Position numbers and translations under genes: made by a program. DNA of 63,266 nucleotides, the filler included, from Myxococcota bacterium (GTDB taxonomy: Bacteria; Myxococcota_C; UBA6777): assembly GCA_023150835.1 (NCBI GenBank). It is 3 parts of 3 records of this genome, joined end to end, with 100 filler letters (N's around TTAATTAATTAA, not from the genome) between each part and the next. Parts side by side here need not be neighbours in the genome. Positions count along the whole stretch, not along the records: positions 22,245 to 46,240 come from JAKLKB010000159.1; 2 more parts are not named here. One strand, 5' to 3'. How positions within the stretch are numbered: position 1 is the stretch's first letter; each line of letters opens with the position of its first letter. Of the stretch, positions 11,151-61,279 are shown piece by piece. A model generated the notes under the pieces. It ran no database searches and was not told the DNA's origin. It worked only from the letters and a program-made list of their open reading frames with translations.

Positions 11151-11193
11151 ACCAGCCGCACCCTTGTTTCTCTACCCGTGAGGACTTGAATCC

Positions 11194-22144: not shown

Positions 22145-22244
22145 NNNNNNNNNNNNNNNNNNNNNNNNNNNNNNNNNNNNNNNNNNNNTTAATTAATTAA
22201 NNNNNNNNNNNNNNNNNNNNNNNNNNNNNNNNNNNNNNNNNNNN
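22145..22244. other. Artificial contig linker (N44-TTAATTAATTAA-N44)
   Basis: Ns flanking a six-frame stop cassette; adjacency across it is not guaranteed. Confidence 0.97.
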
Positions 22245-27145: not shown

Positions 27146-27261
27146 CGCCCGACGCACGACTTCCCGATCCGTTGACCAAAAAAATTTTTGGTTGGACTAG
27201 GAACTTTGATCCAACGTGTCGTCTTAACAAACAGAGTCCACAAAGCGGCAGGAGATCAGCG

Positions 27262-30392: not shown

Positions 30393-30595
30393 GGTTCACC
30401 GATGCCTTTCTGTCACGATGCAGCTCAACCCCCATCGCTGCGAGCGCGCCGATAGCCAGATCGCTCCACCGCCCCCATCACATCCCGTTGTTCTTCTCTT
30501 TTCGATTCAATCAAACAAAACGGAAGCGACAAACAAAGGCTTGAGGGGCAAACAAAAAATTGTTTCGATTTCCCTACAGGAGCCACACAGTTTTT

Positions 30596-30719
30596 CAAAA
30601 ACCCCCGTGCTCGCGGCACTTCAATCGGCACCGCGATGGGTTTGAAAAACGCCTGCTTGCCCCGCCGACACGGGGTCAAGGGGCCTGCGGTCTATGGCGG
30701 GGTGTGGGGTGGCACCCCA
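30596..30719 (-). repeat. Family B repeat (reverse)
   Basis: aaaaacccccgtgctcgc...tttgaaaa...ggggtcaagggg...ggggtggcacccca. Confidence 0.8.
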
Positions 30720-30908: not shown

Positions 30909-33413
30909 ATGTTCGAGAGACAAAAGCAACGGTGGATTCGACGAGGGGTGGCGTGGTGCGTGTTGGTGTTGTGGTGCGGAGTGTCGATGTGGGCGTGCGA
31001 CACATTGGCCCCGTCGGAGTCGGCGCAAGAGAACCCCCAAGAAACCAAACAAGAGGGGACACAAAACAACGAAGGGACGGGCGAGAACACACCGACGGAA
31101 TCAAGCAACGAACCTGCCCAGACAGAGACCACGACTTCCGAAAAAACCGAAGAGGGTCGCCCCGAAACCAACGAACCCAATTCGCCCGATGGCTCGACCG
31201 AAACAACGCCCGACGGTTCAACGGAACCCACCCCCGAACAGATATCCGACGCCAACCCTCCCGAGCAAACAGCGGATCAGCCCACACAACCGACAGGATG
31301 CGGTGTGACGACATTTCGTTATGATGCCAAAGGCCAGACTCCCGTGACGGTTTTTGTGGCGGGCAGTTTTAACAGTTGGGCTGATAGCGTCGCCAAGGGC
31401 GCGTATGCGATGGTCAACACCCAAGGCTCGCTTTGGGAAGTGACCCAAAAACTCCCCGAAGGTACGCACCAATACAAGTTCGTCGTCGATGGAAAATGGA
31501 TCCCCGATCCTGACAACCCACGCACCGCACCAGACGGATTTGGCGGACAAAATAGCATCATCGAGATCGCTCCTTGTACCGATCCCACCGTCGAAGTCAC
31601 CTCCCACAAAACCACCAACAGCGACTTTACCGCTGATCTGCTCTTTAAGTCGGGTGCATCGGGATCGGGCATCTCCAAAGTCATCGCCACCCTCGATCAC
31701 CAAGCCGTTCCTGCGGGCAGCGTCACCCACTCGGGCAATACGATCAAAGTCGATCTCAAAGGTCTTGCCAAAGGCATCCACGATCTGCGTGTCGAAGTCG
31801 AAGACCAAAACGGCCAACGCTCCGCCGTTAAACTGCTCAAGATCTATGTGGGCTTTTCGAGCGACTGGCGCGATGTCTCCCTTTACTTCGCGATGATCGA
31901 TCGCTTTATGGATGGCGATCCCGCCAACAACAAGCCTTTCGCTGACACCCCCGACCTGTTGAACTACATGGGCGGTGACTTCAAAGGACTCAGCCAAAAG
32001 ATCGATAGCGGATACTTCGATGCTCTCGGCATCAACGCGCTCTGGATCACATGGCCGATCGATAACCCCGATTACGCCGAACCCGGCGCACGCCCGGGCA
32101 GCCACTGGTGCAATATGAATCCCAAAGATCCCAACATCCAATGGATTCAAACCCGCTACAGCGGTTATCACGGATATTGGCCCGTCAACACCAACAAAGT
32201 CGAAGAGCACTTTGGCACACTCCAAGATCTCCAAGATCTCGTCGTCAAAGCCCACAAACGCGGCATCCGCATCTTGCTCGACTTTACCGTCAACCACCTG
32301 CACAAAGAGTCCCCGATCTACAAACAGAACGCCAACAGCGGCTATTTCAACACGCCCGCCGAGATCTGCGACAACGTCGGATGGGACAACAAACCCGTCA
32401 CCTGTTGGTTCGTCGACTATCTCCCCGATATCAACTACAACAACACCGCCATCTCCAAGCTCATGCTCGATCACGTCGTCGACTGGGTCAAAAAAACAGG
32501 GGCCGATGGCTTGCGCGTAGACGCACTCAAACACATCGAACAAGGCTTTATCCGCCAACTCCGCCAACGCACCACCAAAGAATTCGAAAGCACAGGTGTC
32601 AACTTTTATATGGTGGGCGAGACCTTTACGGGCGACACAGGCTTGATCAAGAAGTACATCGGAAACGACCAAGTCCACGGACAATTCGACTTCCCGCTCA
32701 ATCTCCAGATCCTCAAAGCCTTTGCTCGCAACGAGATCGGCCTCGATGCCTTTGACCAAGCCGCACGCGGGATCATGGCGTCCTACGGCAGCGATGCACT
32801 CATGTCCACCTTCATCGGAAACCACGATATCGCCCGCTTTGTCAGCATGGCCGGCGGACAGATCCGTTGCGGCATCTGGGACGTGATCAGCAACCGCGCC
32901 CAATCATGGAACGGCCCACCCACCGCACCCACCTCCGAAGATGCTTACAAAAAACTCTTGCTGGCCTTCGCTTATATCTTTGCTCTGCCCGGCATCCCCT
33001 TGGTCTATTACGGCGATGAGTTCGGACTCCCGGGGGCAGGCGATCCCGATAACCGCCGCATGATGCGCTTTGACAGCCAGTTAAGCGCCTTCGAGAAAAA
33101 TACCCTCGCCGTGATGCAAAAGATCGGAAAAGCGCGCCAACAATACGACGCCTTGCGTCGCGGCACACTCGGTTCAACCCTCCAAGCCAGTAGCGATCAC
33201 CTCGTCTTTTTGCGCACAGGACAAGGCGGCCCCGCCGTGATCATCCTCAATCGCGGCGGACAACGCACCGTCACCCTTTCCGCAAGCGCTCTCGGCGTCT
33301 CCGATGGCACCGTCTTTGAAAACGCCCTTGCTGGCGGGCAAATCACCGTCTCTGGTGGCAACCTCACCATCCCCGTAAGCCCTATCACGCCCGTCTTCCT
33401 CATCAAAAAATAA
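30909..33413 (+). CDS. GH13 alpha-amylase family lipoprotein with a CBM48-like domain
   Basis: Lipobox SMWA-C; acidic linker; VFVAGSFNSW..YKFVVDGKW; IDRF.DGD, GGDFKG, YHGYW, DFTVNH, GLRVDALKH, GE and NHD conserved regions. Confidence 0.92.
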   Translation: MFERQKQRWIRRGVAWCVLVLWCGVSMWACDTLAPSESAQENPQETKQEGTQNNEGTGENTPTESSNEPAQTETTTSEKTEEGRPETNEPNSPDGSTETTPDGSTEPTPEQISDANPPEQTADQPTQPTGCGVTTFRYDAKGQTPVTVFVAGSFNSWADSVAKGAYAMVNTQGSLWEVTQKLPEGTHQYKFVVDGKWIPDPDNPRTAPDGFGGQNSIIEIAPCTDPTVEVTSHKTTNSDFTADLLFKSGASGSGISKVIATLDHQAVPAGSVTHSGNTIKVDLKGLAKGIHDLRVEVEDQNGQRSAVKLLKIYVGFSSDWRDVSLYFAMIDRFMDGDPANNKPFADTPDLLNYMGGDFKGLSQKIDSGYFDALGINALWITWPIDNPDYAEPGARPGSHWCNMNPKDPNIQWIQTRYSGYHGYWPVNTNKVEEHFGTLQDLQDLVVKAHKRGIRILLDFTVNHLHKESPIYKQNANSGYFNTPAEICDNVGWDNKPVTCWFVDYLPDINYNNTAISKLMLDHVVDWVKKTGADGLRVDALKHIEQGFIRQLRQRTTKEFESTGVNFYMVGETFTGDTGLIKKYIGNDQVHGQFDFPLNLQILKAFARNEIGLDAFDQAARGIMASYGSDALMSTFIGNHDIARFVSMAGGQIRCGIWDVISNRAQSWNGPPTAPTSEDAYKKLLLAFAYIFALPGIPLVYYGDEFGLPGAGDPDNRRMMRFDSQLSAFEKNTLAVMQKIGKARQQYDALRRGTLGSTLQASSDHLVFLRTGQGGPAVIILNRGGQRTVTLSASALGVSDGTVFENALAGGQITVSGGNLTIPVSPITPVFLIKK

Positions 33414-33446
33414 ACCAAAGAGAGTCGCGTGATCGGATTGGTTTGG

Positions 33447-33778
33447 TGGGGTTGGAACCCCACTCCCCACAAGGGGTCACGGCCCCCTTGACCCCGTATC
33501 GGCGAAGAGATCAATCCTTTTCCACACAGACGACTCTGTCGCTTGAAGAAGCGCGAACACGGTTTTTTTGTCCACTGCAAAAGTCCCGCCCTCTCGATGG
33601 TTCAGATCTTTGACGACGTGGTGGGAGGGAGTGGGGGCACAAAGCAACTTTGGCTCCAAAAGCACCGATACATCAACCCGAGGTATGATCGGCCTACCTA
33701 GGGGCAGCCCCCTGTGGCTGCCCAAGAATAGGGCGTCTACGTACGATCCTTTGTGTACACACCTCTCGGATATCGTAT
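33447..33778 (+). repeat. Family B copy (33447-33570) and partial family C copy (33699-33778)
   Basis: Direct similarity to the 6107-6232 and 9148-9263 elements. Confidence 0.8.
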
Positions 33779-33912
33779 AAGTAGGCTGCCCCCTTTTTCT
33801 TTCACCAAGCGTGATCTATCGTTTGTCAGCGAGTACACCGTGCAAAACAGGCGAGCGCCCGTTCACAAAGCGCCCGCTTGCGACCTTCCATACCACCCAA
33901 AGGAAACCAACC

Positions 33913-34188
33913 ATGCCAAATCGTATCAGTACCCAAAACGCCCCCAAAGTCCAACAAGTCGGCGCACAGCAAATCAAACAAAGCAACAGCCAACAGATCG
34001 GCTCCGCCCTCCAACAGATCAAAACAAACCCTTCTCTTGCACAACAATTCTCGAACACTCTTCAACAACAAACAGGGGCTTCGAGCGCACAAGTCGGCCA
34101 AGTCTTCGGTCAAGGTCTGGCCGGAGCCGTCGCTCAATTGAGCCAATCCACCGCTGGCGCACAAGTCGGCATCGGCCTCTTGGAATAG
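33913..34188 (+). CDS. 91-aa Gln/Gly/Ala/Ser-rich small protein; candidate precursor/scaffold peptide
   Basis: AAAGGA RBS; MPNRISTQNAPKVQQ...GAQVGIGLLE; repeated xQQ motifs; upstream of the ATP-grasp/LanB genes. Confidence 0.75.
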   Translation: MPNRISTQNAPKVQQVGAQQIKQSNSQQIGSALQQIKTNPSLAQQFSNTLQQQTGASSAQVGQVFGQGLAGAVAQLSQSTAGAQVGIGLLE

Positions 34189-34284
34189 CTTTCATTGACG
34201 GATGGCTCGGGAGCGCCTTGTCGTTGACAGATTGTTCGCAAGCGCCTTGTCTTTCACAGATGGCTCGGAAAGGAACGCCTCATC

Positions 34285-34809
34285 ATGGATCAACCCAAAA
34301 ATACAAGCCGACTGTTGGCTTTTTTTGAGCGCCAAAATGAAGATGGGACGTACTTCTACGAAGACGAAGCCGTCCGCCATTTTTTGCCGCTGTTGGCGAT
34401 GCAGATCGCGATGGAATGGGGCTCACAAGCATGGACACCCCCGATCCAACGGCTCATGGACGAGTTTGTCGAAGGGCTTGGGCTACCAGAAGGCTTTGAT
34501 GGCGCGCAGCTCAACGAAGCGGTCGAAGGTTACTACGCCAAAGCAGGTGTCGATCCTGCCCTCAAACGCGGCTTCCAAGAACTCGTGCGCGAACTGTTTG
34601 CCGACGGAAGCACCCAAGAACTCAGCGATGCTGCCGCCAAACTGCTCGGGATGGAACCTCAAACCATCCCATCTCCCGCCCCCGCCCATCCGCCCAAAGG
34701 ACGTGTTGGCGTCTCCGTCGCAGGACTTCTCCTCCAACACACCGCAGCGCAAAAACGCCCCGAAGACGCTTCTTCGCCCCCTCCGCCCTCCAAAAACAAA
34801 GACGAATAG
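34285..34809 (+). CDS. Hypothetical acidic helical protein
   Basis: AAGGA RBS; 174 aa; Pro-rich tail. Confidence 0.75.
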   Translation: MDQPKNTSRLLAFFERQNEDGTYFYEDEAVRHFLPLLAMQIAMEWGSQAWTPPIQRLMDEFVEGLGLPEGFDGAQLNEAVEGYYAKAGVDPALKRGFQELVRELFADGSTQELSDAAAKLLGMEPQTIPSPAPAHPPKGRVGVSVAGLLLQHTAAQKRPEDASSPPPPSKNKDE

Positions 34810-34825
34810 GAGCGACGCAACAAAC

Positions 34826-34998
34826 AAAAAACCCCGTGTTCGCGATATCTCAAGCGACAGCGTCGTTGGTGTGAAAACTCCGTGCTCACTTTGCCAACAC
34901 GGGCTCAAGAGGGCGAAGCCCTCTCGCGGGGCGTGGGGCAGCGCCCCATAGGCGTTAGGTGAAGCGGAGGAAAGCCCCCCACCCCGCCCTCCCCCGTG
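34826..34998. repeat. Family B (reverse) plus family A end fragment
   Basis: aaaaaccccgtgttcgcg...ggggcagcgcccc-ATA-ggcgttaggtgaagcggagg. Confidence 0.8.
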
Positions 34999-35043
34999 CA
35001 AACCAACCCCGTAAGTCCGAACGAAGAAGGCTAAAAAATTTCG

Positions 35044-36414
35044 ATGAAGATCGAGCAGCTTCCCGAAGATCAAGCGTACATCGAAGCCTACGACCGCGCC
35101 CTGCGCAAGCATGGCAAAACGATGTTAGAAGAAGCCGCCGCCCTGATGGAACGCTACGCAGCACGGGGGATCACCACCATCAAAGGCGCGGGCTTTCCGC
35201 TTCGCCCCTTGTTTTTGCCACGCCGTCTCCTCGAAGATATCGGGCGCTCTTTGATCGAAGGCTTTGAACGCCTGCGGATCGCATTGCTCGATCATCTCGA
35301 AGACAGCGCATGGTTGGCAGAACACCTCCCCATCCCCCCCGCTCTGTTTCAGCACCTCAACTTCCGAGAAAGTCTGTCCAAAGAAGCCTTCTTCTCCGTA
35401 CTTCGCCCTGATGGCTTCTTATTCTCCGATCGCTACGCGCTGATCGAACCCAACTTCGGCAATGGCTCGCTGATCAGCAACGCCTACACCGAGATATTGT
35501 TTGATTATTTCCAAGGATCGACCGTGTTTCGGGAAATCGGCTGGCCTTCCACAGGACTGGATCGGCCCTTCCAACGCCTGATCGAGATGCTCCGTTCTCG
35601 CCTACCTGCGGGAAAACAACGCTACTTTGTCGCTTTGTTTTGCCACCACTGGGAACACCAAGTCATCCAGACATGGGAAGAGCGCGTGATCCAACAGCTT
35701 TATCTCGCGCAGCAGATCTTGGCCGAGCAAGGCATCGATACAAGCGTAGTATACGAGGATGGCTTTTCCATTGATGAATCCGGCCACACCCACCTCAAAG
35801 CAGACGGACAGCGCGTCGATCTGGTGTTGCAATTCACCATCGGAACGTCATTTATGGACGAGCCTTGGTTATTTGAAGACGCACTCGCCCACCTCACAAG
35901 CGCCAAGATCGGCGATGCTCCGTTGATCAAGCCCTTGGCCTCCTTGTGCATCGACAAAGGCACCTTGCCGCTGATGAATACTCTCGGCGGATGGCCGATC
36001 TGCGCAGAAGAAAACTTCCGCGTGGAGATCCCTTGGACGACCTACCCCAAAGCCGAACAGGCCGCAGAATACCGCCTGAACAAAGACCGATACGTCTTAA
36101 AACGAGCCTTTGATGGCAAAGACACCCATGTCGGCATCTCTACAGCAGGGCGGCTGTGGAATCGCACTCTGGCCCAAGCCCTCGAAAGCGACGCCTACGT
36201 CTTACAACATTATCAGCCCATGCCCCAAACGATCATGCCGATGTGCTTTGATGGAGAGCATATCGAGTGGGTGCCTGTGCGCGTCGAGTTGTCGCCGTTT
36301 TTGGTAGAAGGCCGCTATGCAGGCGCGATCGCACGTTATGCGCCCGAAGCCGAAGGCTTGGTGATGTCACCCCCACCCGAAAATATGGGGCTAACCAATG
36401 TCTTCGGCACCTAA
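35044..36414 (+). CDS. Circularly permuted ATP-grasp amide ligase (glutathionylspermidine-synthase-like fold)
   Basis: LRPDGF...LIEPNFG (RxD...ExN), DKG, YVLKRAFDGK..VG, YVLQ.Y; overlaps the next gene. Confidence 0.75.
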   Translation: MKIEQLPEDQAYIEAYDRALRKHGKTMLEEAAALMERYAARGITTIKGAGFPLRPLFLPRRLLEDIGRSLIEGFERLRIALLDHLEDSAWLAEHLPIPPALFQHLNFRESLSKEAFFSVLRPDGFLFSDRYALIEPNFGNGSLISNAYTEILFDYFQGSTVFREIGWPSTGLDRPFQRLIEMLRSRLPAGKQRYFVALFCHHWEHQVIQTWEERVIQQLYLAQQILAEQGIDTSVVYEDGFSIDESGHTHLKADGQRVDLVLQFTIGTSFMDEPWLFEDALAHLTSAKIGDAPLIKPLASLCIDKGTLPLMNTLGGWPICAEENFRVEIPWTTYPKAEQAAEYRLNKDRYVLKRAFDGKDTHVGISTAGRLWNRTLAQALESDAYVLQHYQPMPQTIMPMCFDGEHIEWVPVRVELSPFLVEGRYAGAIARYAPEAEGLVMSPPPENMGLTNVFGT

Positions 36415-39157
36415 ACCCACCCCACCAACAAATGTTCCAGCCCCCCTCCACTCAGACGAACCATCCACTGCCGATCAAACCACGCAAACCACGCTCGAAC
36501 TGGCCGATGGATGGGCGTGTTGGCGACCATTTGCGTTGCGGGGTGCAGGATTTCCGCTGGATCGAGTCCTGCGCTTTGCCGATCCCAAGCTCCTCGCCGC
36601 GTTGGAGAACCACCTCACCAAAGAAACCGAACTTCGCCAAGCGTGCCTCACCCTGATCGCTGCGTGGTCAAACGGCGGAACTTCCGACGAACGCAACTCC
36701 ACACGCCAACACATCAAACACACACATCGCCTCCTCGCGCAGCTTTCGACTTTTTCACATAACCACACACAAACGCCCATCCCTCCGCACTCTACACACG
36801 ACGGCATACAAACGCCCATCCCTCCGCACTCTACACACGATGACACACAAACGCCCATCCCTCCGCACTCTACACACGATGACACACAAACGCCTGTCTC
36901 TCCGCACGCTATACATAACAACTCACAAACGCCCATCCCCTCGTTGCTGGAGGCATCGCAAGCGGTGTGTGTAGCAGAGGAGGCTTGGGAAAAAGCGCGT
37001 GTGGCTTGGGAAGCCGCTTTTGTGGAGGGTGCGCATCGAGAGCATCGCGAACTTCAATCGCTGCTTGCACAAGGCGATCTGATGCGTGCGGTGTTGTGGC
37101 AAAATCGAGAGGCGGCGATCCACGGGCTTGGGTTGATCCCTCCGATGGCATCGGAAGAACAGAACAAGCGCGCTCGCCAAGCAAGGCAGATCGTCCATCG
37201 TTATCTTCAACGCTACTGCACCAAAAATGACACCATCGGTTTTTTTGGTCCCGTGGGATGGGGGTTTTGGAGCGCAGGGGAGACGCATATTCTGGCGGGT
37301 TCCAAACAGATGGCGCGACAAGGCGTGTACTTTGAACCGTGGGCGATGGCGGTGTTTGCGCGCCAATGGAGTGAGTCACCGGCCTTTTTACTGGATATCC
37401 CGCCGCGTGTGCATCCGCTGTGCGCGTTGGTCGAAGGCCGACTCTTGGGCGTCCCGGGCGCAAGAGGCCGAGACAAAAGCCGCGCTCTCACCCCCCAAGA
37501 ATACGCCCTGATGATGCGCTGCGATGCCCGCCGCACAGCGCGCTCGATCTTGGCGGATATCGCCCAAGACACCAGCCTTTTTGAAGACTGGAGCCAAGCC
37601 TATCAAGTGCTTTGCGATCTGGTGCGCAAGGGTTGGCTGATCTGGTCCTTGGATATGGCCTTTGAGGCTCACCCCGAACGCCGCCTGTTGGGCGTCGTCG
37701 ACGCTCTGCAAGATCCGACGATCCAAGCGGCTTGTAAGAAACAGCTTACGCCGCTGCTGGAGGCTTTCGATGTCGTATCCAAAACCACCGAAGATGCGGC
37801 CTCTTTGGCCGAAGCGTTGGGAGCGTTGGAAGTTTGCTTTGTGGCCCAAAGCGGCGAGTCGGCCACACGCAACCAAGGTGCAACGTACGCAGGACGGACA
37901 CTGACGTATCTTGACGGCCAAAGAGACGGTCGATGGGAGATCTCCGATACGCTGCTCGGACAGATCGCCCAGCCGCTTTCACTGATGTTGCAAAGTGCGC
38001 GTTGGTACACTTGGCGGATCGCGACGGCGTATCAAGCGCATCTACGGGGACTTTGCGATCAGATCCTCGCGACCGAGGGCGGAAGCGACCTACCCTTGGT
38101 GCGTTTGTGGCAAGAAGCCAGCGACTGGCTCGATCCCTTTTTTCCCAAAGCGGTCGAAGAGATCGTCGAAGACTTACAACAGCGCTGGGCGACGATCCTC
38201 GACATCTCGGAATCTACGGACAAACGACGTCTCGAACGAGATCCCGCTGCATTAAAAGAAGCGGTGATGGCGGCTTTTTGGGCTCCACATCCGGGATGGC
38301 CTTGCGCTCGGCATCATGCGCCCGATCTGATGTTTGCGGCCCCTGATCTCGCAGCTTTGGAGCGCGGCGAAGGGCTGTTTGTGCTTGGAGAGCTTCACGC
38401 GGGGATCCATCCGCTGTGTACGCTTTCGATGACCACACAACACCCCGATCTGGCTTCTCTTCAAGCCCTCTACGCACAAGATATCCCCGATATCGGGATC
38501 GCTCCGATCCCTGACGTGGACTTTGCCCGATCCTGCCACGATTCGCGGCTTGCGCCTCGCGATCTGCACCTCGATATGGGCGCGCCGTGGGCGAGCTGGC
38601 GCGGTCCCGACCAAGTCCTCCCCATAGGCGCATTCTCGGTTCGCCCGTCAGGTGGGGGGATCGAGGCCACAACCCGCGATGGACAGCACCGCTTCGATAT
38701 CTTGCAGATCATCGAGCGTTCTCTCAAACTACGCGCTGCTGTTCATTTTTCTTACTTGCCTTCGTGGGCGCATCGCCCGCGCATCCAGCTAGGCCGCTTG
38801 GTGATCGCACGCGAAAGCTGGCGCATCTCCGCAGCGCAGATGGCTTTCGCACGCGAAACACAGCCAAGCAGCCGTTTTGCGGGAGCCTCTCGATGGGCAA
38901 GATCCGCCGAGATACCGCGTTTTGTCTTTGCACGCTCCCCCAAAGAAACCAAGCCGATCTACGTCGACTTCCACAGCCCCCCTTCTGTCGAGATCTTTTG
39001 CCATCTGATCCGACAAGCCGAAGACGCTGCACTACATCTAAGTGAGATGTTGCCAAGTCCCGAAGAGGCGTGGTTATCGGATGCGACGGGGCGTCGTTAT
39101 GTGAGTGAAGTGCGGATGATCGCCGTCGATCCGCAAGTATGGAGGCCCCTTCCTTGA
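36398..39157 (+). CDS. Stand-alone LanB N-terminal-domain enzyme (PEARL-type peptide aminoacyl-tRNA ligase candidate)
   Basis: LRGAGFP, YLQRYCTKNDTIGFFGPVGWG, GRTLTYLD, RHHAPDLM, VLGELH, LVIARESW, KPIYVDF.SP and SEMLP...WL....RYVSEVR. It ends there with no elimination domain. Confidence 0.88.
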   Translation: MSSAPKPTPPTNVPAPLHSDEPSTADQTTQTTLELADGWACWRPFALRGAGFPLDRVLRFADPKLLAALENHLTKETELRQACLTLIAAWSNGGTSDERNSTRQHIKHTHRLLAQLSTFSHNHTQTPIPPHSTHDGIQTPIPPHSTHDDTQTPIPPHSTHDDTQTPVSPHAIHNNSQTPIPSLLEASQAVCVAEEAWEKARVAWEAAFVEGAHREHRELQSLLAQGDLMRAVLWQNREAAIHGLGLIPPMASEEQNKRARQARQIVHRYLQRYCTKNDTIGFFGPVGWGFWSAGETHILAGSKQMARQGVYFEPWAMAVFARQWSESPAFLLDIPPRVHPLCALVEGRLLGVPGARGRDKSRALTPQEYALMMRCDARRTARSILADIAQDTSLFEDWSQAYQVLCDLVRKGWLIWSLDMAFEAHPERRLLGVVDALQDPTIQAACKKQLTPLLEAFDVVSKTTEDAASLAEALGALEVCFVAQSGESATRNQGATYAGRTLTYLDGQRDGRWEISDTLLGQIAQPLSLMLQSARWYTWRIATAYQAHLRGLCDQILATEGGSDLPLVRLWQEASDWLDPFFPKAVEEIVEDLQQRWATILDISESTDKRRLERDPAALKEAVMAAFWAPHPGWPCARHHAPDLMFAAPDLAALERGEGLFVLGELHAGIHPLCTLSMTTQHPDLASLQALYAQDIPDIGIAPIPDVDFARSCHDSRLAPRDLHLDMGAPWASWRGPDQVLPIGAFSVRPSGGGIEATTRDGQHRFDILQIIERSLKLRAAVHFSYLPSWAHRPRIQLGRLVIARESWRISAAQMAFARETQPSSRFAGASRWARSAEIPRFVFARSPKETKPIYVDFHSPPSVEIFCHLIRQAEDAALHLSEMLPSPEEAWLSDATGRRYVSEVRMIAVDPQVWRPLP
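36766..36939 (+). repeat. 39-bp coding tandem repeat (QTPIPPHSTHDDT x~4.5) inside the LanB-like gene
   Basis: acaaacgcccatccctccgcactctacacacga.. repeated. Confidence 0.9.
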
Positions 39158-40560
39158 CACAAGATCCCCAATCCACCAAGTCGCGACAACATGCCGCAAC
39201 ACAAGATCCCAAACCCGCCAAGTCGCTACGAAACACCGCTGCAATGGTCGGTCGCGCCGTACCGATCCTCGATCAAGCCGTTTCTGCCGGCCTCATGCAC
39301 GTCACGCTCCAAGATCGCGCCAACAAGCGCGTCCGCCTCGACGATGGCCGCGTCGTCACCGAGTTTATCAACTGCTCTTATCTCGGGCTGGATCTGCATC
39401 CTGCGGTGCTCGCTGGCGCAAAACAGGTCTTGGATGACTGGGGAATTCATCTCTGCTGTGCGCGTTCGCGCTTTTCCATCGGCCCCAATGCTCTTCTCGA
39501 AGACGGTCTCTCCGCTCTGTTTCGTGGACGAGCGATCACCTTCCCATCCGTCACAAGTACGCACATGTCGGTGCTTCCGTTGCTTGCGAGTGGTGTGCTC
39601 TTGGACGATCGCCATCCGCGCCCGATGCGTGTGATCTTCGATCGCTTTGCGCACGCTTCGATGCAGTACCTCAAACCGATCTTGGCCGAAGAAGCGCAAG
39701 TTTGCACCATCCCACACAACGACCTCGACGCTCTGCGCAGCCAAGTCCAAGAAGCCCATGCTTGCGGGCAACGCGCCGTCTATCTCGCGGATGGCGTCTA
39801 CTCAATGGGCGGCATGTGTCCTGTCACCGACCTGATCGCGATGGCCCAAGAACTCGACTTTGCGCTCTACATCGACGACGCACACGGAACTTCCATCTTT
39901 GGCGAACAAGGCGAAGGCTACGTCCTCAGCCAGATCCAAGGCCCGCTCCCTGAACAAGTCTTTGTGTGCTTTTCTCTCGCCAAGGGCTTTGGCTGCAATG
40001 GCGGTGGCATCGTCCTTCCCAACACACGCACCGAACGCTTGATCCGCCAGTTCGGACAAACCTACAACTTCTCCGCCCCCCTCGATTTTTCTCTAATCGG
40101 CGGGGCGCTCGCGGCCTTGGAACTCCACCGCAACGGAGAAGTCCGACGCCTACAAACTCAACTCGACCGACAGATCGCCCTTTTTGTGTACGGTGAAGCC
40201 CAACAACCCACCCCTCCGCTCGTATCAGCAACCTCAAGTCACCTCATCCTCCCAAACACCCGAAACCACGACGTGATGGTGCCTTTCTTGACATGGAACG
40301 AACATGATCGACCGATCGACGGTCGCCTTGGACCGATTCGGATGGTCTTTGTCGGCGAAGAAGCCCGTGGCATCGACTGGGGACAAAAGCTGATCGAACG
40401 GGGCTATTTTGTCTCAGCAGCTTTTTTCCCCGTCGTTCCGCGAGGTCGCTCACAACTGCGTATCGCCATCACAGCAGGCCACGACCGCCAACAGATCTTG
40501 GGCCTTCGTGATGCCCTCCGCGATATCGCCGAAGCATCCGGTGTGTTGTCTGTTGCCTAG
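39154..40560 (+). CDS. PLP-dependent alpha-oxoamine synthase (BioF/Kbl-like class II aminotransferase)
   Basis: FINCSYLGL, DRFAHAS, HND, DGVYSMGG, DDAHG, SLAKGFG (PLP Lys), FPVVPRG..LRI. Probable TTG start overlaps the LanB stop (TTGA) with GGAGG upstream; ATG 39139 is an alternative. Confidence 0.88.
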   Translation: MTQDPQSTKSRQHAATQDPKPAKSLRNTAAMVGRAVPILDQAVSAGLMHVTLQDRANKRVRLDDGRVVTEFINCSYLGLDLHPAVLAGAKQVLDDWGIHLCCARSRFSIGPNALLEDGLSALFRGRAITFPSVTSTHMSVLPLLASGVLLDDRHPRPMRVIFDRFAHASMQYLKPILAEEAQVCTIPHNDLDALRSQVQEAHACGQRAVYLADGVYSMGGMCPVTDLIAMAQELDFALYIDDAHGTSIFGEQGEGYVLSQIQGPLPEQVFVCFSLAKGFGCNGGGIVLPNTRTERLIRQFGQTYNFSAPLDFSLIGGALAALELHRNGEVRRLQTQLDRQIALFVYGEAQQPTPPLVSATSSHLILPNTRNHDVMVPFLTWNEHDRPIDGRLGPIRMVFVGEEARGIDWGQKLIERGYFVSAAFFPVVPRGRSQLRIAITAGHDRQQILGLRDALRDIAEASGVLSVA

Positions 40561-40679: not shown

Positions 40680-40759
40680 CTCGCTACATGACAGGCCAAT
40701 GACGAGCGAGCGAAACATCGGAAAGAACGAAGTGTTTTGGAGGCTCAAACATGACAAGA
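40680..40759 (-). mobile_element. 80-bp remnant of the IS4-family element end
   Basis: 78/80 identical to 43215-43294, including the terminal repeat CTCGCTACATGACAG. Confidence 0.9.
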
Positions 40760-40803
40760 CCAACGCCATGAGAGAGGTATCAAGAGGCAACACTTCTCAG
40801 TCA

Positions 40804-40931
40804 GGGCAACCACACCTGGTTGCCCCTACGTGTTGGAAATCACACGGTGTTTTGTAGGCAACCACACATGGTTGCCCCTACGTGTTGGAAATCACACGGT
40901 GTTTTGTAGGGGCAGGCCCCCGTGCCTGCCC
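40804..40931. repeat. BIME-like cluster of GTAG-type REP palindromes (~52-bp period)
   Basis: ggcaaccacacMtggttgcccctac x2 with an identical linker, then inverted gtaggggcaggcccccgtgcctgccc. Confidence 0.8.
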
Positions 40932-41087
40932 TCGATCTGTTGCGTCGCTGACCTCTTCATCGCTATCTGTTTTGAACGAACCCCTCGAGTTTTCGTTGTT
41001 TTCTTCAACTATAGACAATAAAAAGAGTACAGTTTCTGTTTATTAATTATTCAACCAAATTCACAAATAAACGTTTTTTACGAAATT

Positions 41088-42332
41088 TTATTTTTTGTTC
41101 ATAACAACAATATATTCATTATTTATCGTTGTTGCAGTTTTTCCCGTTTCGTTTGTTGGACTGTTTTTTCGAGGCATTCTTTTATTTGGAATATTTCTAA
41201 TGAAAGTATATTTGTGTTCAAATTCAAATTGTTCAAAAATAGATTTTGTAAATTCATCTGTCAAAAGTGTTATGTCTTTTACTCTTCTGTTTCCAACGAC
41301 GTAGCAAGCATATCCTCCTCTTTTTATAACATTTGCAACGTTAGAAATAGATTTTATATAATCAACATAAAAACTATATACTTCTCTTGCCCTTTTCTCA
41401 TCAATAGAGGCTATTTGTTGGATAGTAGCATCCAACAATTGAAAGCCTGTTGGGAAGATCTCTTTTGGGGCACCTCCCATCAATCGACTATCCAAGTTGT
41501 CGGCCTCTTCAAAGCCTAGCCATTGGCTAGATAAGCGTGAAAACTGGCCGTAAGCAACGGTTGTTTTGCTGTCTCCGTAAGGGGGAGATGTGACAACTAA
41601 GTCTACGGACTCATCTTCGAGCGTTACTTCTTGAGAAGAATCAAATTCAAACACGTACACTTGACTATTGAACGAATTTGTTTTTTTTAGAAAACTTTCA
41701 AGACCTTTTTTGTTGCGATTCACTTTAGAAAGAAGCATGGAGAACACATCAGGCTTGAATTTTTTTACTTGTTCTTCTGTCATTCGATATAATTTGAATT
41801 CGCCATTTCTTGTTAGACTACTTTCTCTTACAGTTTCACTAAAAGCGATGAGGAAAAAATCTTTTATTCTATTATTTTCTATTGTATCAATAAATTGCTT
41901 TATGATCGCGAGTTCTGAAATCGTCTGAGGAAGAAACCAGTAATCAATATTTTTGAATTGAGGTATGTTTTGAGGATAGCAAATTTTCCCAAAATTTACA
42001 CTCAGCAGATAATTGTGAAGTGATTGTACGTAAGCTTCCAGCTCTTTTACACAGAGCTTTGATGTTTTTGTTTTTGCTATAAGTCGTGCGAGTGGGTTTA
42101 GATCTGAACCAAAAGCATTGATTCCACAAAGGTTCGCTTCAACCAAAGAAGTTCCTGTTCCGCAGTAAGGATCAAAAAGAGACTTTGCACCTTTTCCATA
42201 TTCTCGAATCAACCGCTCTGCAATTTGTGGAATCATCATCGCTGGATAATTATGGAAGCAATGTGTGTCTCTCTTTACATTTTCCGTTTGAAAATCCCAA
42301 GAATAATCGTTTTCTTTTCTTAATGTCATCAT
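41088..42332 (-). CDS. Type II DNA methyltransferase, probably N4-cytosine (MvaI-like)
   Basis: HCFHNYPAMMIPQIA, FDPYCGTGT (motif I) preceding VVTSPPY (motif IV); AT-rich. Confidence 0.9.
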   Translation of the reverse strand: MMTLRKENDYSWDFQTENVKRDTHCFHNYPAMMIPQIAERLIREYGKGAKSLFDPYCGTGTSLVEANLCGINAFGSDLNPLARLIAKTKTSKLCVKELEAYVQSLHNYLLSVNFGKICYPQNIPQFKNIDYWFLPQTISELAIIKQFIDTIENNRIKDFFLIAFSETVRESSLTRNGEFKLYRMTEEQVKKFKPDVFSMLLSKVNRNKKGLESFLKKTNSFNSQVYVFEFDSSQEVTLEDESVDLVVTSPPYGDSKTTVAYGQFSRLSSQWLGFEEADNLDSRLMGGAPKEIFPTGFQLLDATIQQIASIDEKRAREVYSFYVDYIKSISNVANVIKRGGYACYVVGNRRVKDITLLTDEFTKSIFEQFEFEHKYTFIRNIPNKRMPRKNSPTNETGKTATTINNEYIVVMNKK

Positions 42333-42335
42333 TTA

Positions 42336-43016
42336 TTACAAGTCCTCGATTTTTTTGAATAGTAGGTGGAGTTTGTCTTCAAAAATTCTAAAACCTGTAC
42401 CATGATTTCTTGCTCTCGTGCCTTTATCATGAAGCCTTAAATCTACAAGTAAGTTTCCTGTTTTAAATAAATCAGAAAGCAAATCGGAGGATGTTTCTCT
42501 CATTATCTGGGCTCTGTAAAATTGGAAATATTCTACACCAGCCCTTTCCTCTACGTGTGCGGATACAAAAATTAACGCAGGAATTTTCTTTGCAAATCTT
42601 TCTGCAATTGTGGCAATTTGCCACGTTGCGATAATCTCTCCAGATATGTGTTGTACAGCGATTTCATGTTGAGATACGGTCAAAAAGAGTCCCGCACTAT
42701 TTGGAGATAAAGACATCGTGTAATACATTCCCAATCTGCCATTTTGGTCGAAACTTCCGTATTTTTTTATTGCCGTTAAAGGATTAATTTTCCAACATTT
42801 TTTATTAAACGTAAATAAAGTGATCATACTATTCGAATGATCCCGATGAGCTTTAATCTCAATGCCTTTTATATCGGGCAGTGCTAGGTTGTTTTCTCTC
42901 AATCCAATCAACATTTCAAAAGTATAACCAACACCTGTTGGGCCTTTTCTTAGGGATTTTACGAATCCTTTGGATTTTAGCAATTGAAATTCTGTTGTCA
43001 ACTCGTCTAGTGTCAT
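42336..43016 (-). CDS. MvaI/BcnI-family type II restriction endonuclease
   Basis: RKGPTGVGYTFE.LIGL.ENN...PD...IEIK, ITLF, and C-terminal RNHGTGFRI; 3 bp from the MTase. Confidence 0.88.
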   Translation of the reverse strand: MTLDELTTEFQLLKSKGFVKSLRKGPTGVGYTFEMLIGLRENNLALPDIKGIEIKAHRDHSNSMITLFTFNKKCWKINPLTAIKKYGSFDQNGRLGMYYTMSLSPNSAGLFLTVSQHEIAVQHISGEIIATWQIATIAERFAKKIPALIFVSAHVEERAGVEYFQFYRAQIMRETSSDLLSDLFKTGNLLVDLRLHDKGTRARNHGTGFRIFEDKLHLLFKKIEDL

Positions 43017-43214
43017 TTGAGTACCCCGAATAAGTGTTAATTTGATATCGAGAAACGATTGCAACGAGCTTATATAACGCACAATCGATTCTATGTCAAG
43101 AGTGTCATTTTAAATAAAGCCCATAGATTCAAAGAAATCCATATTTACATCATAGTAAGGCAAATTTTTTCTCCCATTGATAGATGTATAAGATGGAGAC
43201 TTTTTTGTTGTAGA

Positions 43215-44437
43215 CTCGCTACATGACAGGCCAATGACGAGCGAGCGAAGCATCGGAAAGAACGAAGTGTTTTGGAGGTTCAAACATGACAAGAAAATGT
43301 CCTCCATTTTTGAGCTGCCTCTCTAACCAAGAAAGTCCAAGCCGAAACAAGCTCTTATCTTGTCGTCGAAGGCTTCGATCTACTTGATCCACTTTTCTTT
43401 CTATCACGACTTGAAGCCCCAAATAGACCATCCACAAATAACTCAGACAACAGAGCATAAGAAGACGACTTAATCTCTCTGGGCAAGACAAATGGCTCTT
43501 GTCAATTCCAAATCCCCTACTTTTTTGATCGCTAAAAAAGGTTTCAATGATGAATCGTTTTCGATACCAATTCAATGACTTGTGTGCATCTGGCAAGGTG
43601 GACAACAAATACCAAGGCTGTTTTTCTTTTGGCTTCCAATGAGCGATGGCATGAAGTGGGCCGAAAGCCTGTGCTGTGACATTGGCATCGCAAACAGAGA
43701 GCGTCTGGCCTTGAGCCACGGGCAAAGCGTGTTGGATTTGCTGTACGTTGTCGCCTTGGTGAAGCAACGTGTTTTTGGCGGTACGCACAACGAAGTCCCA
43801 ACCACATTCTTCCGACAGATAACGCAAAAAAGAGACATTATCGTACTCACCGTCGCCGAGCAAAATAACATCCTGCCTGCTCCCAAGAAGTTCTTTCGCG
43901 TGCTTTGCGAAGGCAACGTGCTTGTCTGCGCTCCGATGACCTTTTCCTCCTTGCTCAACCTGCCAGAGCAAGGGCAAAAGGCGTCCTTTGTAAAGGATAC
44001 CAAGCATCAAGACAACGCATCCACGGCCAATCTCACTGACATCAAGGGCAAGCGGGAGTCGTATCCCCTCAAATGCCCGAAGCAGTGATTGAATGAATGG
44101 AAGCATGAGCGTTTTCGGCTCGGCATCGGAGGCAATGAAACGTTGAAAGCGCCGATGGGTACTTTCTGTTTTGGCATTGGAAGGGGCGGCCTGCGCAAGT
44201 TGCGTAAGGTGGCATCGGCCTTTCCTCACGAGAGCAGAGATCATCAAAGACATCGTGACGACACGACTCTGAGAAGTCGTTGTCAAAATCTTCTGCTTGG
44301 GTATCTTGCACTTTCGTGTACAGTCTTTTCGCGTCGCTCATTTGGTGCTCCTTTGGTTGGTTAGTGCTACCAAGGTACCTCATGAGCGACGTTTTTTCTA
44401 GAGCTTTCGCTGTTTTCTCAAACTGTCATGTAGCGAG
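43215..44437 (-). mobile_element. IS4-family insertion sequence with 15-bp terminal inverted repeats
   Basis: CTCGCTACATGACAG (43215-43229) and CTGTCATGTAGCGAG (44423-44437) enclose a DDE transposase; no target duplication visible. Confidence 0.88.
43219..44341 (-). pseudogene. IS4-family DDE transposase, frameshifted near the 5' end
   Basis: LALD, LGDGEY, YRKRFIIETFFSDQKSRGF (YREK-like). The RBS-backed ATG at 44341 (MSDAKRLY) is out of frame with the main ORF (TTG 44286). Confidence 0.75.
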
Positions 44438-44496: not shown

Positions 44497-44618
44497 AAAA
44501 AAACCCGTATTTGCGAAACTTCAAGCGGCGCTGTCGTTTGTTTGAAAAACAATGATCTTCCCGCCAATACGGGGTCGAGGGGGCCGCGACCCCTTGCGGG
44601 GCGTGGGGCAGCGCCCCA
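44497..44618 (-). repeat. Family B repeat (reverse)
   Basis: aaaaaaacccgtatttgcg...tttgaaaa...ggggtcgagggg...ggggcagcgcccca. Confidence 0.8.
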
Positions 44619-44669
44619 CAAAACAAACCCAACCGCGTAAGCCCAGCACAAAAAATCAAGTACATCAGC

Positions 44670-46010
44670 CTATGTCGACGAAGAGACGAACACGACAGGC
44701 AAGAGAGCGCCACCTTGGTGGACGTTGATCACGCTTGAATCAGAGATACGCGCAAAACAGCCGACAAATCGGGACTTGTGAACCCACGCGCTGAGAGTGA
44801 CGTTCTTTTCGACCACCTGTGCCCGCCCTTGGGCGTCTTGCATCACAAAACGACCCCGTGAGGCTGGCCATGCACGTTGCGCGACATAAGAAAAAGGTCG
44901 CATCACAGCCTCTTGGAGGGTTTGTTCCCAGATATCGGCGCTGCATACGCGTCCGAGGATCACCCCAAAACCACCGTATCCTTCGTTGGGTTTGAGTACC
45001 CATTCGCTGCGCTGCTCGCGAAGCAAAGACAGCAGATCGACTTCTCGATCTTCGTACAAGACTTTTTCTTCACGCACCACAAAAGTCCACGGCATACACT
45101 CGCGCAACACAGCGCGCACTTCTTGCGGCAAGGACTCCTGATAATGAGGCGAGCTCAACGGCTCCAACAGCCCCTTGTAATCGGCCACGATGGTGCAAAA
45201 AGGATTGATCAGCTTGACCGCTCCTGCACGATATGCGTCAAACAACGGGCGCGTGGCAGGCCAATATCCCTCCAACAACAGCTCGTCGATGGTGTCGCGG
45301 ATCACCCCGTCGATCGGGCGTTCTTCGGACCACAGGCGCTTTCCATCCCATCGCAACGAACGCGGGTCAGCAAGCGTGATCGACAAGCCCCGCGCCTTGA
45401 GTCCTTCCACGATCAAGCGATGCTCGTCATGCACCAACGAAGCCGCATCGCTTAGCTGTACCCACGCAGCAGGCGGAGCAAGCGTTGCGTTCACAAGCCC
45501 TGCATACGCATCAAGCAAGATATCTTCGTGGATATCCCCCATGCACCGAAGTTTTTGCATCGCTGGAAGCAAGCGCATCGCCGCAAGAAAAGCATCCGTG
45601 AACCCCGCCCCCGAAGGATCACCCGCGTTGCACTCCATCACTCGAAACACGCCCGCTTTGTCGTCCCAAAAACCGTCAAATCGCGCACAAAACATCGCCT
45701 GTTCCCGCTCCGCATCCAGTCGCGCAACCTCCCATGCTTCGGGGCGCATCGAGATCATCCACGCAGCAAGCCTCCCCCTCAAGATATCTTGAACCGCTCG
45801 ATCAAAAGCCTCGGCCAACGCTTCGACTTGGGCTTGGAGAGCCGAACGGATCCCGAACGGCAACAGCAATGGCTGCGGAAGTGTCGGGATCTTCACACCC
45901 AAACGCCGCATCGCCTCTTGCATCGGCACAAAGTGCGCGTCTGGCTCCTCGCAAAGCGTCCGAAGATACGCTTGTTGCCATGCGTTCCTTTCTGTCACCT
46001 CCTCTCGCAT
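44670..46010 (-). CDS. Second circularly permuted ATP-grasp amide ligase
   Basis: ARFDGF...MECNAGDPSG, NP....DYKG, WVLKPNEGYGGFGVILG, YVAQ, VINVHQGG; AAGGAGG RBS. Confidence 0.85.
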   Translation of the reverse strand: MREEVTERNAWQQAYLRTLCEEPDAHFVPMQEAMRRLGVKIPTLPQPLLLPFGIRSALQAQVEALAEAFDRAVQDILRGRLAAWMISMRPEAWEVARLDAEREQAMFCARFDGFWDDKAGVFRVMECNAGDPSGAGFTDAFLAAMRLLPAMQKLRCMGDIHEDILLDAYAGLVNATLAPPAAWVQLSDAASLVHDEHRLIVEGLKARGLSITLADPRSLRWDGKRLWSEERPIDGVIRDTIDELLLEGYWPATRPLFDAYRAGAVKLINPFCTIVADYKGLLEPLSSPHYQESLPQEVRAVLRECMPWTFVVREEKVLYEDREVDLLSLLREQRSEWVLKPNEGYGGFGVILGRVCSADIWEQTLQEAVMRPFSYVAQRAWPASRGRFVMQDAQGRAQVVEKNVTLSAWVHKSRFVGCFARISDSSVINVHQGGALLPVVFVSSST

Positions 46011-46092
46011 CTGAACCTCCTTCTCTGGTCTCTCCAAAGATCTAGCCTGTTTTCGCCTTCCGATCAACCTGTTTTGCTTTCGTTGGCACGTG

Positions 46093-46590
46093 TGGGGCTT
46101 TGCCCCATAGGCGTTAGGTGAAGCGGAGGAAAGCCCCCCACCCCGCCCTCCCCCGTGAACAGGGGAGGGAGCGAAAGTCGGAAGCCTCGGGGATTTTGTT
46201 TTTTCATGACGCACGCTGTATGCACCAAATGCAGACGCTGNNNNNNNNNNNNNNNNNNNNNNNNNNNNNNNNNNNNNNNNNNNNTTAATTAATTAANNNN
46301 NNNNNNNNNNNNNNNNNNNNNNNNNNNNNNNNNNNNNNNNATTGAGGGGGGGGATTGAGGGGGGGGATTGAGGGGGGGGATTGAGGGGGGGGATTGAGGG
46401 GGGGGAGAACAAAAGAAAAGGCGATCAAGACCGACTCTACGAGGTTTTCACCTTAACCTAACGCCTATGGGGCGCAGCCCCACGCCCCACAAGGGAGCGA
46501 AGCCCCCTTGACCCCGTGTTGGCGGGGTGAACACAGGTTTTTCACACCAACAGCGCTGCCGCTTGAAGTGTCGCGAATACGGGTTTTTTT
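46093..46590. repeat. Family A element interrupted by the assembly gap, with (ATTGAG8)x5 and a family B copy
   Basis: Left side is the reverse complement of 26883-27028; right side is the reverse complement of the A core, then family B at 46468-46590. Confidence 0.8.
46241..46340. other. Artificial contig linker (N44-TTAATTAATTAA-N44)
   Basis: Same cassette as at 22145. Confidence 0.97.
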
Positions 46591-46777
46591 GCAACAAGCC
46601 ATCCCGCTCTCATTTTGTTTGGACTGCCTTTGCCGCGTCAGGGGTTGTCTTGGGACTTGCTCTTGACAGCGGATGATCCTTCTCCTATCGTCCCTTGCAA
46701 CCGCCGTTGCCAAACCCGATTGTTTGCTGAAGATCCTGTGTTGGATCGTCTTCTCGCACGAAGGAGCTTTGAAGGCG

Positions 46778-55552: not shown

Positions 55553-55585
55553 TCTCATAGGACTTACGTGGTTGGGTGGTGCTTA

Positions 55586-61278: not shown

Positions 61279-61279
61279 G

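Follow-up and report, generated by a model that had tools for sequence, protein, structure and literature searches.

A glutamate-terminated peptide, a PEARL-type LanB protein, circularly permuted ATP-grasp ligases and an alpha-oxoamine synthase in a conserved, putatively pearlin-type gene set of Myxococcota

The DNA analysed here, referred to as the window, is a stretch of 63,266 nucleotides from the Myxococcota bacterium assembly GCA_023150835.1 and consists of three contigs placed end to end. One of these, the cluster contig (22245–46240; 23,996 bp, in agreement with the length listed for the contig of the window's LanB), carries a compact gene set, referred to as the cassette, in which a small peptide gene stands beside genes for a LanB-type protein of the PEARL kind, ATP-grasp ligases and a pyridoxal phosphate (PLP)-dependent alpha-oxoamine synthase (AOS). 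The original prediction, made from the sequence alone, had described a 91-aa and a 174-aa open reading frame (ORF) followed by three overlapping genes, and all of these were recovered at the coordinates claimed, with an ATG at 39139 as an alternative start of the synthase. Its list of five ORFs was correct, but it had missed the second ATP-grasp gene, the conserved C-terminal glutamate of the peptide and the join between contigs. The features of the cluster contig and its borders are as follows.

22145–22244: run of N's around TTAATTAATTAA, an artificial contig joiner.
33913–34188, plus strand: pep91, a candidate scaffold peptide of 91 aa, Gln-rich and Cys-free, with the C-terminus ...GIGLLE; an ORF with a ribosome-binding site.
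34285–34809, plus strand: hyp174, an accessory protein of 174 aa whose N-terminal domain (about 100 aa) is conserved.
34812–35043: spacer of about 232 bp between hyp174 and X456 that contains a single copy of a dispersed, roughly 140-nt repeat; missing in the related loci L001 and L081.
35044–36414, plus strand: X456, a predicted ligase of 456 aa with a glutathione-synthetase fold (circularly permuted ATP-grasp); the family is unannotated.
36398–39157, plus strand: PEARL-type LanB N-domain protein of 919 aa, with PF04738 alone and no elimination domain.
36765–36939, plus strand: 39-nt unit repeated in tandem (4.5 copies), translated as 13-aa repeats within the LanB protein's variable N-terminal linker.
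39139–40560, plus strand: PLP-dependent AOS of 473 aa, BioF/Kbl family, PRK07505 subfamily.
40680–44437: low-GC insertion bounded by insertion sequences (IS), outside the pathway, with genes for a DNA methylase, an MvaI/BcnI-type endonuclease and a DDE transposase.
44670–46214, minus strand: second circularly permuted ATP-grasp ligase (PF14403/PF04174), start uncertain.
46241–46340: run of N's around TTAATTAATTAA, an artificial contig joiner and the end of the cluster contig.

The X456 and LanB genes overlap by 17 nt, and the AOS gene may start at the ATG at 39139 (19-nt overlap with the LanB gene) or at a TTG at 39154 (4-nt overlap). The start of the second ligase is uncertain because its ORF extends into a repeat where the contig ends. 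Because of the joiner at 46241–46340, genes past 46340 are not linked to the cassette; a 1193-aa protein and an M20 peptidase (50285–51475) were considered as cluster members and rejected, since they lie on another contig beyond the N spacer and show no synteny in L001. The Pfam scan of the cluster contig covered the larger ORFs (at least 216 aa) within 23342–46214, shorter or overlapping ORFs lying outside it. Among the scanned ORFs there was no match to LanC, YcaO, nonribosomal peptide synthetase (NRPS) or elimination domains, as had been predicted, and none to kinase, reductase or M20 genes or to homologues of LysZ, LysY, LysJ and LysK. Rfam gave no match on the cluster contig. A promoter scan of 33300–35100 returned no site, and six terminator-like sites were found there against 3.1 expected.

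Two loci nearly identical to the window, L001 (a contig of a metagenome-assembled genome) and L081 (a metagenome contig), share 91–94% DNA identity with it. Homology of both to the window breaks at 40676 and restarts at 44440 in blastn, and in L001 the gap between the AOS and the second ligase is about 700 bp. The second ligase is a member of the cassette, split off in the window by the 3.8-kb insertion unit, which is missing in these near-identical relatives. Inverted IS ends of 15 nt delimit the insertion at 40680 and 44437; it also includes an additional 80-nt IS end (40680–40759) and one full IS (43215–44437). It carries a type II restriction-modification pair, the methylase at 41088–42332 and the MvaI/BcnI-type endonuclease at 42336–43082, with a GC content of 40–44%. 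Homology of the second ligase to L001 ends at 46040. The repeat in the spacer at 34812–35043 is likewise inserted in the window relative to L001 and L081, as judged from blastn breakpoints and from the repeat families D15/D20 and I1/I6/I8.

X456 matches no Pfam or NCBIfam family; at E ≤ 10 Pfam gives only a chance match to ChaB (0.053), and neither the single sequence nor the family profile found anything usable among PDB sequences. Its AlphaFold2 model, built from a 34-sequence alignment (pLDDT 93.6, pTM 0.91), was matched by Foldseek to human, plant and yeast glutathione synthetases, YgiC/YjfC, glutathionylspermidine synthetase (GspS), Mfla_0391 and the E-64 amide ligase Cp1B, with probability 1.00, E values of 8e-15 to 4e-10 and TM scores of 0.54–0.63. 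The X456 family profile also aligned with that of the PF14403-positive family of the second ligase (hhalign 99.4%, E 3.6e-21, 391 columns), and all 22 X456 copies, from 21 loci and from the window, are matched by the second-ligase-family profile with E values between 1e-17 and 4e-6. From the model and the profile comparisons, X456 is predicted to belong to the circularly permuted ATP-grasp enzymes of the glutathione synthetase type. It carries KDT where its paralogue, the second ligase, has a GGF glycine-rich loop (hhalign); the second ligase itself matches PF14403 (3e-9) and PF04174. X456 resembles glutathione synthetase, GspS and YgiC/YjfC in its predicted fold, and differs from them in having no sequence-level match to solved structures, no Pfam family and a constant linkage to a PEARL. 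Its own family is small and tight, with 75 proteins at E ≤ 5e-62, in none of which a Pfam domain was found and all of which are named 'hypothetical protein'. The identification of X456 with the 'half-size PEARL-like' protein mentioned in the available text of PMC11117183 was rejected, as hhalign found no homology between X456 and the LanB family (probability 1.6%). According to the same source, glutathione-synthetase-type enzymes act on a short peptide by phosphorylating its C-terminal carboxylate and then adding an amine.

The labels originally given to the three overlapping genes thus stand: circularly permuted ATP-grasp for X456, by model, Foldseek and hhalign and despite the missing Pfam match; LanB without an elimination domain; and a PLP enzyme of the BioF/Kbl type. 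Of the profile check that had been proposed, the presence of PF04738 and PF00155 and the absence of PF14028 held, but X456 matched neither PF14403 nor PF03738.

The LanB protein matches PF04738 with E 1e-24 (87 bits against a cut-off of 28), and PF14028 gave no match in it even at E ≤ 10. The accessible text of PMC11117183 states that TglB Asp542 and Arg803 are conserved solely in PEARLs, with Tyr and Leu in their place in split LanBs, and that PEARLs and split LanBs have in common TglB Glu801 as well as the Arg743 and Phe783 (TbtB numbering) that bind adenine. In the LanB family of the cassette, D643, R805, F844, E904 and R906 are invariant in 25 of 25 members, and R48, D643, H667, R805, E904 and R906 are kept in all 16 X456-linked LanBs, F844 being replaced by Tyr in one. 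R805 and F844 align directly to TbtB, which the family profile matches at 2e-13 (6ec7). The TbtB alignment stops 13 residues short of E904, and ungapped extension places E904 on TbtB Glu851 and R906 on Leu853. The distance from D643 to E904 is 261 residues, compared with 259 in TglB. This mapping of the PEARL residues is indirect, yet it agrees at three anchor points and is consistent with assignment to the PEARLs.

The same domain would also be expected if the LanB provided the glutamylation half of a lanthipeptide or thiopeptide dehydratase of the split kind, which would act on Ser/Thr of pep91 and have its elimination partner elsewhere: PF04738 is common to dehydratases, the profile matches the split LanB TbtB, and pep91 contains Ser and Thr. 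We consider this extremely unlikely, because the LanB family has Arg and Asp instead of the Leu and Tyr of split LanBs, and PF14028 was found neither in the protein, nor in the scanned ORFs of the contig, nor in the 6.6-Mb genome of L001 (completeness unknown), the same search being positive in three of five other genomes. Moreover, no LanC or YcaO was among the scanned ORFs, pep91 is Cys-free, and the scaffolds conserve Glu, not Ser/Thr. The only PF04738 match in the L001 genome is the LanB gene of the cluster itself. No sign of a dehydratase-like LanB with an elimination partner, which the original prediction had named as an observation that would speak against it, was seen in the protein, the scanned ORFs or the L001 genome. 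The features of class I lanthipeptide and thiopeptide clusters are similarly lacking, as no elimination domain, LanC, [4+2] cyclase or YcaO was present among the scanned ORFs.

The LanB family reaches well beyond the cassette. In the genome collection, 577 of 599 scanned stretches were confirmed as relatives, of which 80 were kept, and X456 is present in only 4 of these 80 loci. The other contexts include tandem PEARLs, NRPS genes, ornithine cyclodeaminase, PALP enzymes, glutamate mutase, and a FemAB-like gene with an M20 peptidase. Relatives of the LanB protein have a shorter linker (905–906 aa in total, compared with 919 aa). In three Sorangium loci (L052, L071 and L080, approximately 8250–13470), a family member lies between a FemAB-like, aminoacyl-tRNA-transferase-like gene and an M20 peptidase gene, and an ORF of megasynthase size (2,700 aa) adjoins; this is a different, tRNA-rich context. 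A 2018 preprint (10.1101/338681) reports, in its accessible part, that small LanBs turn up in numerous gene contexts. As described in the available portions of PMC11117183 and PMC12945691, PEARLs use ATP to phosphorylate a C-terminal carboxylate, which is then joined to the amine of an aminoacyl-tRNA. The accessible text of the latter, a review, names only the Tgl, Amm and Bha PEARLs and states that no crystal structure of a PEARL has been published.

The third gene of the overlapping series encodes a protein with PF00155 and with 387 bits to NCBIfam PRK07505, above the cut-off of 342; the bioF, Kbl, ALAS and SPT models match below their equivalog cut-offs. At E ≤ 1e-10 it matched 38 solved AOS structures, the nearest relative being Alb29 (PDB 8xha; four entries of one enzyme), with E 1e-47 over residues 45–349 and a further match over 395–446. 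The PLP lysine (SLAKGFG aligned to SLNKGFG of Alb29) and the Asp/His motif (DxAH; YIDDAHGTS aligned to YFDEAHSTS) correspond. In the available text of PMC11906848, AOS enzymes are described as converting an amino acid and an acyl thioester to an aminoketone, and Alb29, from albogrisin biosynthesis, as an L-glutamate-specific AOS that condenses L-Glu with acyl-CoAs. By that partial account Alb29 acts on free L-Glu and acyl-CoA, and the AOS of the window differs from it by an insert of about 45 residues (350–394) and an N-terminal extension.

The linkage of these genes was examined in 21 X456 loci (4 from genomes and 17 from metagenomes), of which L081–L097 were found via X456; the cassette recurs in loci labelled Myxococcota and in unlabelled metagenome contigs. 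In 19 of the 21, X456 comes with a LanB gene; in the remaining two the contig breaks off just past X456. Twelve of the 21 loci have the AOS, as does the window; the nine loci without it are on contigs of at most 6.3 kb or, in the case of L095, on a contig that stops within the gene found next to the AOS, after it, in the sister locus. The second ATP-grasp gene also occurs in 12 of the 21 loci and the window, as an orthologue in L001, L021, L083, L086 and L090 and as a more distant gene in seven others. That the trio of genes is kept together, as the original prediction required, is thus borne out, with the AOS and the second ATP-grasp recurring. In a FastTree phylogeny of 110 LanB segments, the 16 from X456-bearing sources (15 loci and the window) are split from the 94 others with SH-like support of 100, where it should be considered that L081–L097 were recruited through X456 and that segments with fewer than 550 query residues were dropped, which removed the partial LanBs of L082, L091, L093 and L097. 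Mere neighbourhood of these genes, by chance or through shared regulation and without a single pathway, is hardly credible, since the linkage holds across loci whose proteins are only 30–50% identical and whose gene order is altered, the LanB clade is exclusive to X456 loci, and start and stop codons overlap.

Six of the loci (L084, L087, L088, L094, L095 and L096) represent a second cluster type with the same core and further genes. These encode a Zn-dependent alcohol dehydrogenase right after the AOS, HpcH/HpaI-type CoA lyase-like proteins, MaoC, a 2-oxoglutarate (2OG) oxygenase, an alpha/beta hydrolase, aldo-keto reductases and a radical SAM enzyme. An alcohol dehydrogenase is the usual partner of an aminoketone-forming enzyme, and the pairing of AOS and dehydrogenase in this cluster type fits the reduction of a putative aminoketone. 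In L001, a gene for an M14 zinc carboxypeptidase (17720–19396, minus strand) lies 3.8 kb past the second ATP-grasp gene, after a Ser/Thr kinase and a Cys-rich protein. It is a possible candidate for a release enzyme.

The peptide gene has an ATG start with AAGGA 8–9 nt upstream. Compared with L001 it shows 12 synonymous and no non-synonymous codon differences, which indicates that pep91 is a real gene under purifying selection; between the peptides of L003 and L083 there are 26 synonymous and 19 non-synonymous differences. Of 12 distinct scaffolds encoded by the small ORF upstream of X456, or of the hypothetical gene and X456, 11 have Glu as their last residue, compared with 80 of 1464 called ORFs (5.5%) in the background; L085, L086, L089 and L091 were not judgeable and were left out of this count. 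The scaffold C-termini are as follows.

Window, L001 and L081: LLE.
L003, L083, L021 and L093: PLE.
L090: GVE.
L084: AIE.
L087: VVE.
L088: GTE.
L096: GYE.
L094: PVE.
L095: RPV.

The scaffold bodies are wholly different by subtype: Gln-rich in the window, Pro/Lys-rich in L003, L083 and L021, and Lys/Ala-rich and about 40 aa long in L088 and L096. The scaffolds of L084, L087, L094 and L095 (type II) are about 105–125 aa long, have a conserved DLGLKxG...PIxGWxxVxN domain and are encoded directly upstream of X456; the scaffold gene's stop codon and the start of X456 overlap in L094 and L095. The type-II domain matched no Pfam family and was unrelated to the hyp174 family by hhalign.

The conserved terminus bears on two further explanations. 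The modified peptide could itself be the end product, the ligases and the AOS decorating or extending the Glu of pep91 without cleavage to give a peptide made by the ribosome and modified after translation (RiPP) or a peptide tag. A protease is missing from the conserved window-type cassette, the scaffold bodies diverge by subtype and are nevertheless under purifying selection, and the type-II scaffolds of about 105 aa look folded with their conserved domain, all of which agree with such a product. We nevertheless find this unlikely, as the subtypes share only the last residue and a hydrophobic residue before it, which fits a handle better than a bioactive peptide, and characterised PEARL pathways release a small molecule according to the accessible parts of PMC12945691, 10.1101/338681 and the sinefungin preprint. 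Quite improbable, in our view, is that free small molecules are the substrates of the PEARL and the ATP-grasp ligases, as they are for SinB1/SinB2, with the small ORF being vestigial or regulatory. Support comes from the preprint on sinefungin, in which, as far as its available text goes, the PEARLs need no peptide and SinA is dispensable, and from the second cluster type with its many small-molecule enzymes (CoA lyase-like, MaoC, 2OG oxygenase, alcohol dehydrogenase). A free substrate is difficult to reconcile with the terminal Glu in 11 of 12 scaffolds, with the translational coupling of scaffold and X456, and with the 12 synonymous and 0 non-synonymous differences in pep91.

The accessory protein hyp174 has no Pfam or NCBIfam match, and its profile gave only chance-level matches to PDB sequences. 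Its N-terminal domain of about 100 aa recurs beside the scaffold gene in L003, L083 and L090 and is limited to the window subtype among the 97 loci examined. A profile search of 1.84 billion representatives yielded 376 proteins at E ≤ 1e-3, mostly of 100–180 aa; no Pfam family covers the domain in the 49 representatives scanned, three of which have marginal matches elsewhere (E 0.001–0.007). One might guess that hyp174 is an adaptor that presents the peptide to carboxylate-activating enzymes. A role as a second scaffold was rejected, as its C-terminus is not conserved. A separate observation is that one member of the hyp174 family (P0290 of P0196–P0346; 571 aa) has the domain fused to an adenylate-forming enzyme.

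The 6.7-kb stretch is nearly complete in DNA runs labelled activated sludge, wastewater, sludge and aquatic from several studies, one of which samples may be the source of the window; parts that are uncovered in the runs (e.g. 41122–42408) carry no weight. Contigs identical to the window were also present in RNA libraries, covering 33715–36266 in X15 and X16 (one sample) and 33839–34938 in X17 (another study). The depths below should be read with the caution that contig depth is a poor measure in RNA libraries and that DNA carry-over is possible.

Peptide and hyp174: 50–80 in RNA libraries X15/X16; about 10–12 in DNA run X4.
X456: 16–18 in RNA libraries X15/X16; about 10–12 in DNA run X4.
LanB and AOS: 0–7 in RNA libraries X15/X16; about 10–12 in DNA run X4.

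This gradient is a weak hint of transcription in which the peptide message is most abundant.

Taken together, we regard a pearlin-type pathway, with its chemistry on the C-terminus of a ribosomal scaffold that ends in Glu, as the probable function of the cassette. We infer tRNA-dependent ligation, ATP-dependent ligation and aminoketone formation from family membership, and every catalytic step, substrate and product named below is proposed by analogy. The conserved core would comprise five parts: the Glu-terminated scaffold, X456, the PEARL, the second circularly permuted ATP-grasp ligase and the PLP-dependent AOS. X456 is usually encoded directly after the scaffold, and all three ligases would act at the scaffold's Glu terminus, where two carboxylates are available, with the encoded terminal Glu as the putative building block. 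The two ATP-grasp ligases would activate the Glu carboxylate or carboxylates as acyl phosphates, and the AOS would make an alpha-aminoketone by decarboxylative Claisen condensation. The AOS could either provide an aminoketone whose amine is captured by amide formation or take the activated scaffold carboxylate as its acyl donor. The scaffold Glu would not be the amino acid substrate of the AOS, because its alpha-amine sits in a peptide bond. The PEARL may extend the terminus or, after release of the product, may reload Glu from Glu-tRNA onto a stump ending in Leu, Val or Ile; we prefer the reloading model because the L095 scaffold lacks only the final Glu. Glu-tRNA is the co-substrate of LanB relatives of the PEARL.

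A more specific form of this pathway is a carrier cycle in which a ligase with the glutathione-synthetase fold would activate a carboxylate of the scaffold Glu, most likely the gamma one, the AOS would form a C–C bond with a second amino acid, and the PEARL would reload Glu. The product would be a diamino-oxo acid, which cluster types with an alcohol dehydrogenase could reduce to an amino alcohol. In this full form we consider the cycle unlikely. If it were true, it would be the first case of an AOS acting on a peptide-bound acyl donor, and pearlin logic would converge with LysW-type carrier logic.

Several observations weigh against action at a Glu-terminated scaffold. The AOS needs a free alpha-amine, so that the scaffold Glu can only be an acyl donor or an anchor, and we know of no AOS that accepts a peptide-bound acyl donor. 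The L095 scaffold lacks the terminal Glu, although compared with its homologue in L094 only the final GAG codon is missing, and the binomial probability of 3e-12 for at least 10 of 11 Glu-ended scaffolds is overstated, because the scaffolds are related and not phylogenetically independent. D643 and R906 were equated with TglB Asp542 and Arg803 by spacing and by the 13-residue ungapped TbtB extension, not by direct alignment to TglB, and the caution on RNA depth given above belongs here as well. No dedicated release peptidase was found in the conserved window-type cassette. Furthermore, the available text of the sinefungin preprint describes PEARLs that work on small molecules, with SinA being dispensable.

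The closest known systems to this proposed pathway are the pearlin pathways (TglB for 3-thiaglutamate; AmmB and BhaB for pyrroloiminoquinones; SinB1/SinB2 for sinefungin), with which the cassette shares a LanB N-domain without an elimination domain, the Asp...Glu-x-Arg residues, an adjacent small peptide gene, nearby amino-acid-tailoring enzymes and a likely C-terminal site of action. As far as the accessible sources describe the Tgl, Amm, Bha and Sin pathways, they do not contain an AOS or glutathione-synthetase-fold ligases. In the cassette the PEARL clade always goes with X456, and the scaffolds carry a terminal Glu in place of the PLALA-type motif described for BhaA. [quoted passage not shown] The amino-group carrier protein (AmCP) system of LysW is also comparable: an amino-acid-derived product is built on a small carrier, to which it is attached through the C-terminal Glu, and the LysX ATP-grasp is encoded adjacently. 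Its defining set consists of a LysX/RimK-type ATP-grasp, LysZ, LysY, LysJ and LysK, and a LysW-type carrier. Of this set the cassette shares only the C-terminal Glu, as well as the position of an ATP-grasp gene beside the carrier; X456 is circularly permuted and not of the RimK/LysX type, there is no common carrier domain, and the cassette has a PEARL. A full-text literature search, which excluded most subscription journals and supplements, yielded no pathway in which an oxoamine synthase, an aminoketone or this pair of ATP-grasps goes together with a PEARL or LanB, in line with the earlier view that the combination is unlike characterised pathways. Judged by these comparisons, the cassette appears to be a distinct, conserved gene set of the pearlin type, with an unprecedented set of enzymes and a Glu-terminated scaffold.

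Other features of the window lie outside the cassette. Intergenic repeats of about 90–165 nt are dispersed over it in both orientations, with a TTGACC-like box and a hairpin with a T-run at the end; they may represent a miniature inverted-repeat transposable element (MITE) or an element like the repetitive extragenic palindromes (REP). Copies are found at the following positions.

4375–4500
6065–6236
26979–27150
30593–30719
33432–33575
34825–34964
44498–44644
46424–46595
54377–54463
55542–55708
57059–57230

Tandem repeats occur at 1–117, 6521–6820, 15376–15570, 20531–20826, 49031–49225 and 49470–49685; they comprise a 9-nt repeat at the start of the window, 12/24-, 21-, 39- and 27-nt coding repeats in large Pfam-less proteins, and a 64-nt intergenic array. 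A histidine kinase at 9238–10786 is divided over two overlapping frames (PAS and HisKA at 9238–10434, HATPase_c at 10247–10786), either by a frameshift or by an assembly error. The third contig carries a type I restriction-modification locus (HsdR-like, HsdS and HsdM) at 58313–63079.

Few PEARL pathways have been characterised, namely those for 3-thiaglutamate, the pyrroloiminoquinones, an NRPS-linked case and sinefungin, and the cassette adds a separate clade to them. With five or six genes it is compact, and the Glu-terminated scaffold provides a simple marker for searches. If the proposed chemistry is true, C–C bond formation by a PLP enzyme would join the repertoire of scaffold-peptide biosynthesis, and the three ligases would offer orthogonal C-terminal activities for peptide engineering. 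The so far unannotated X456 family and the hyp174 domain would then gain a functional context.

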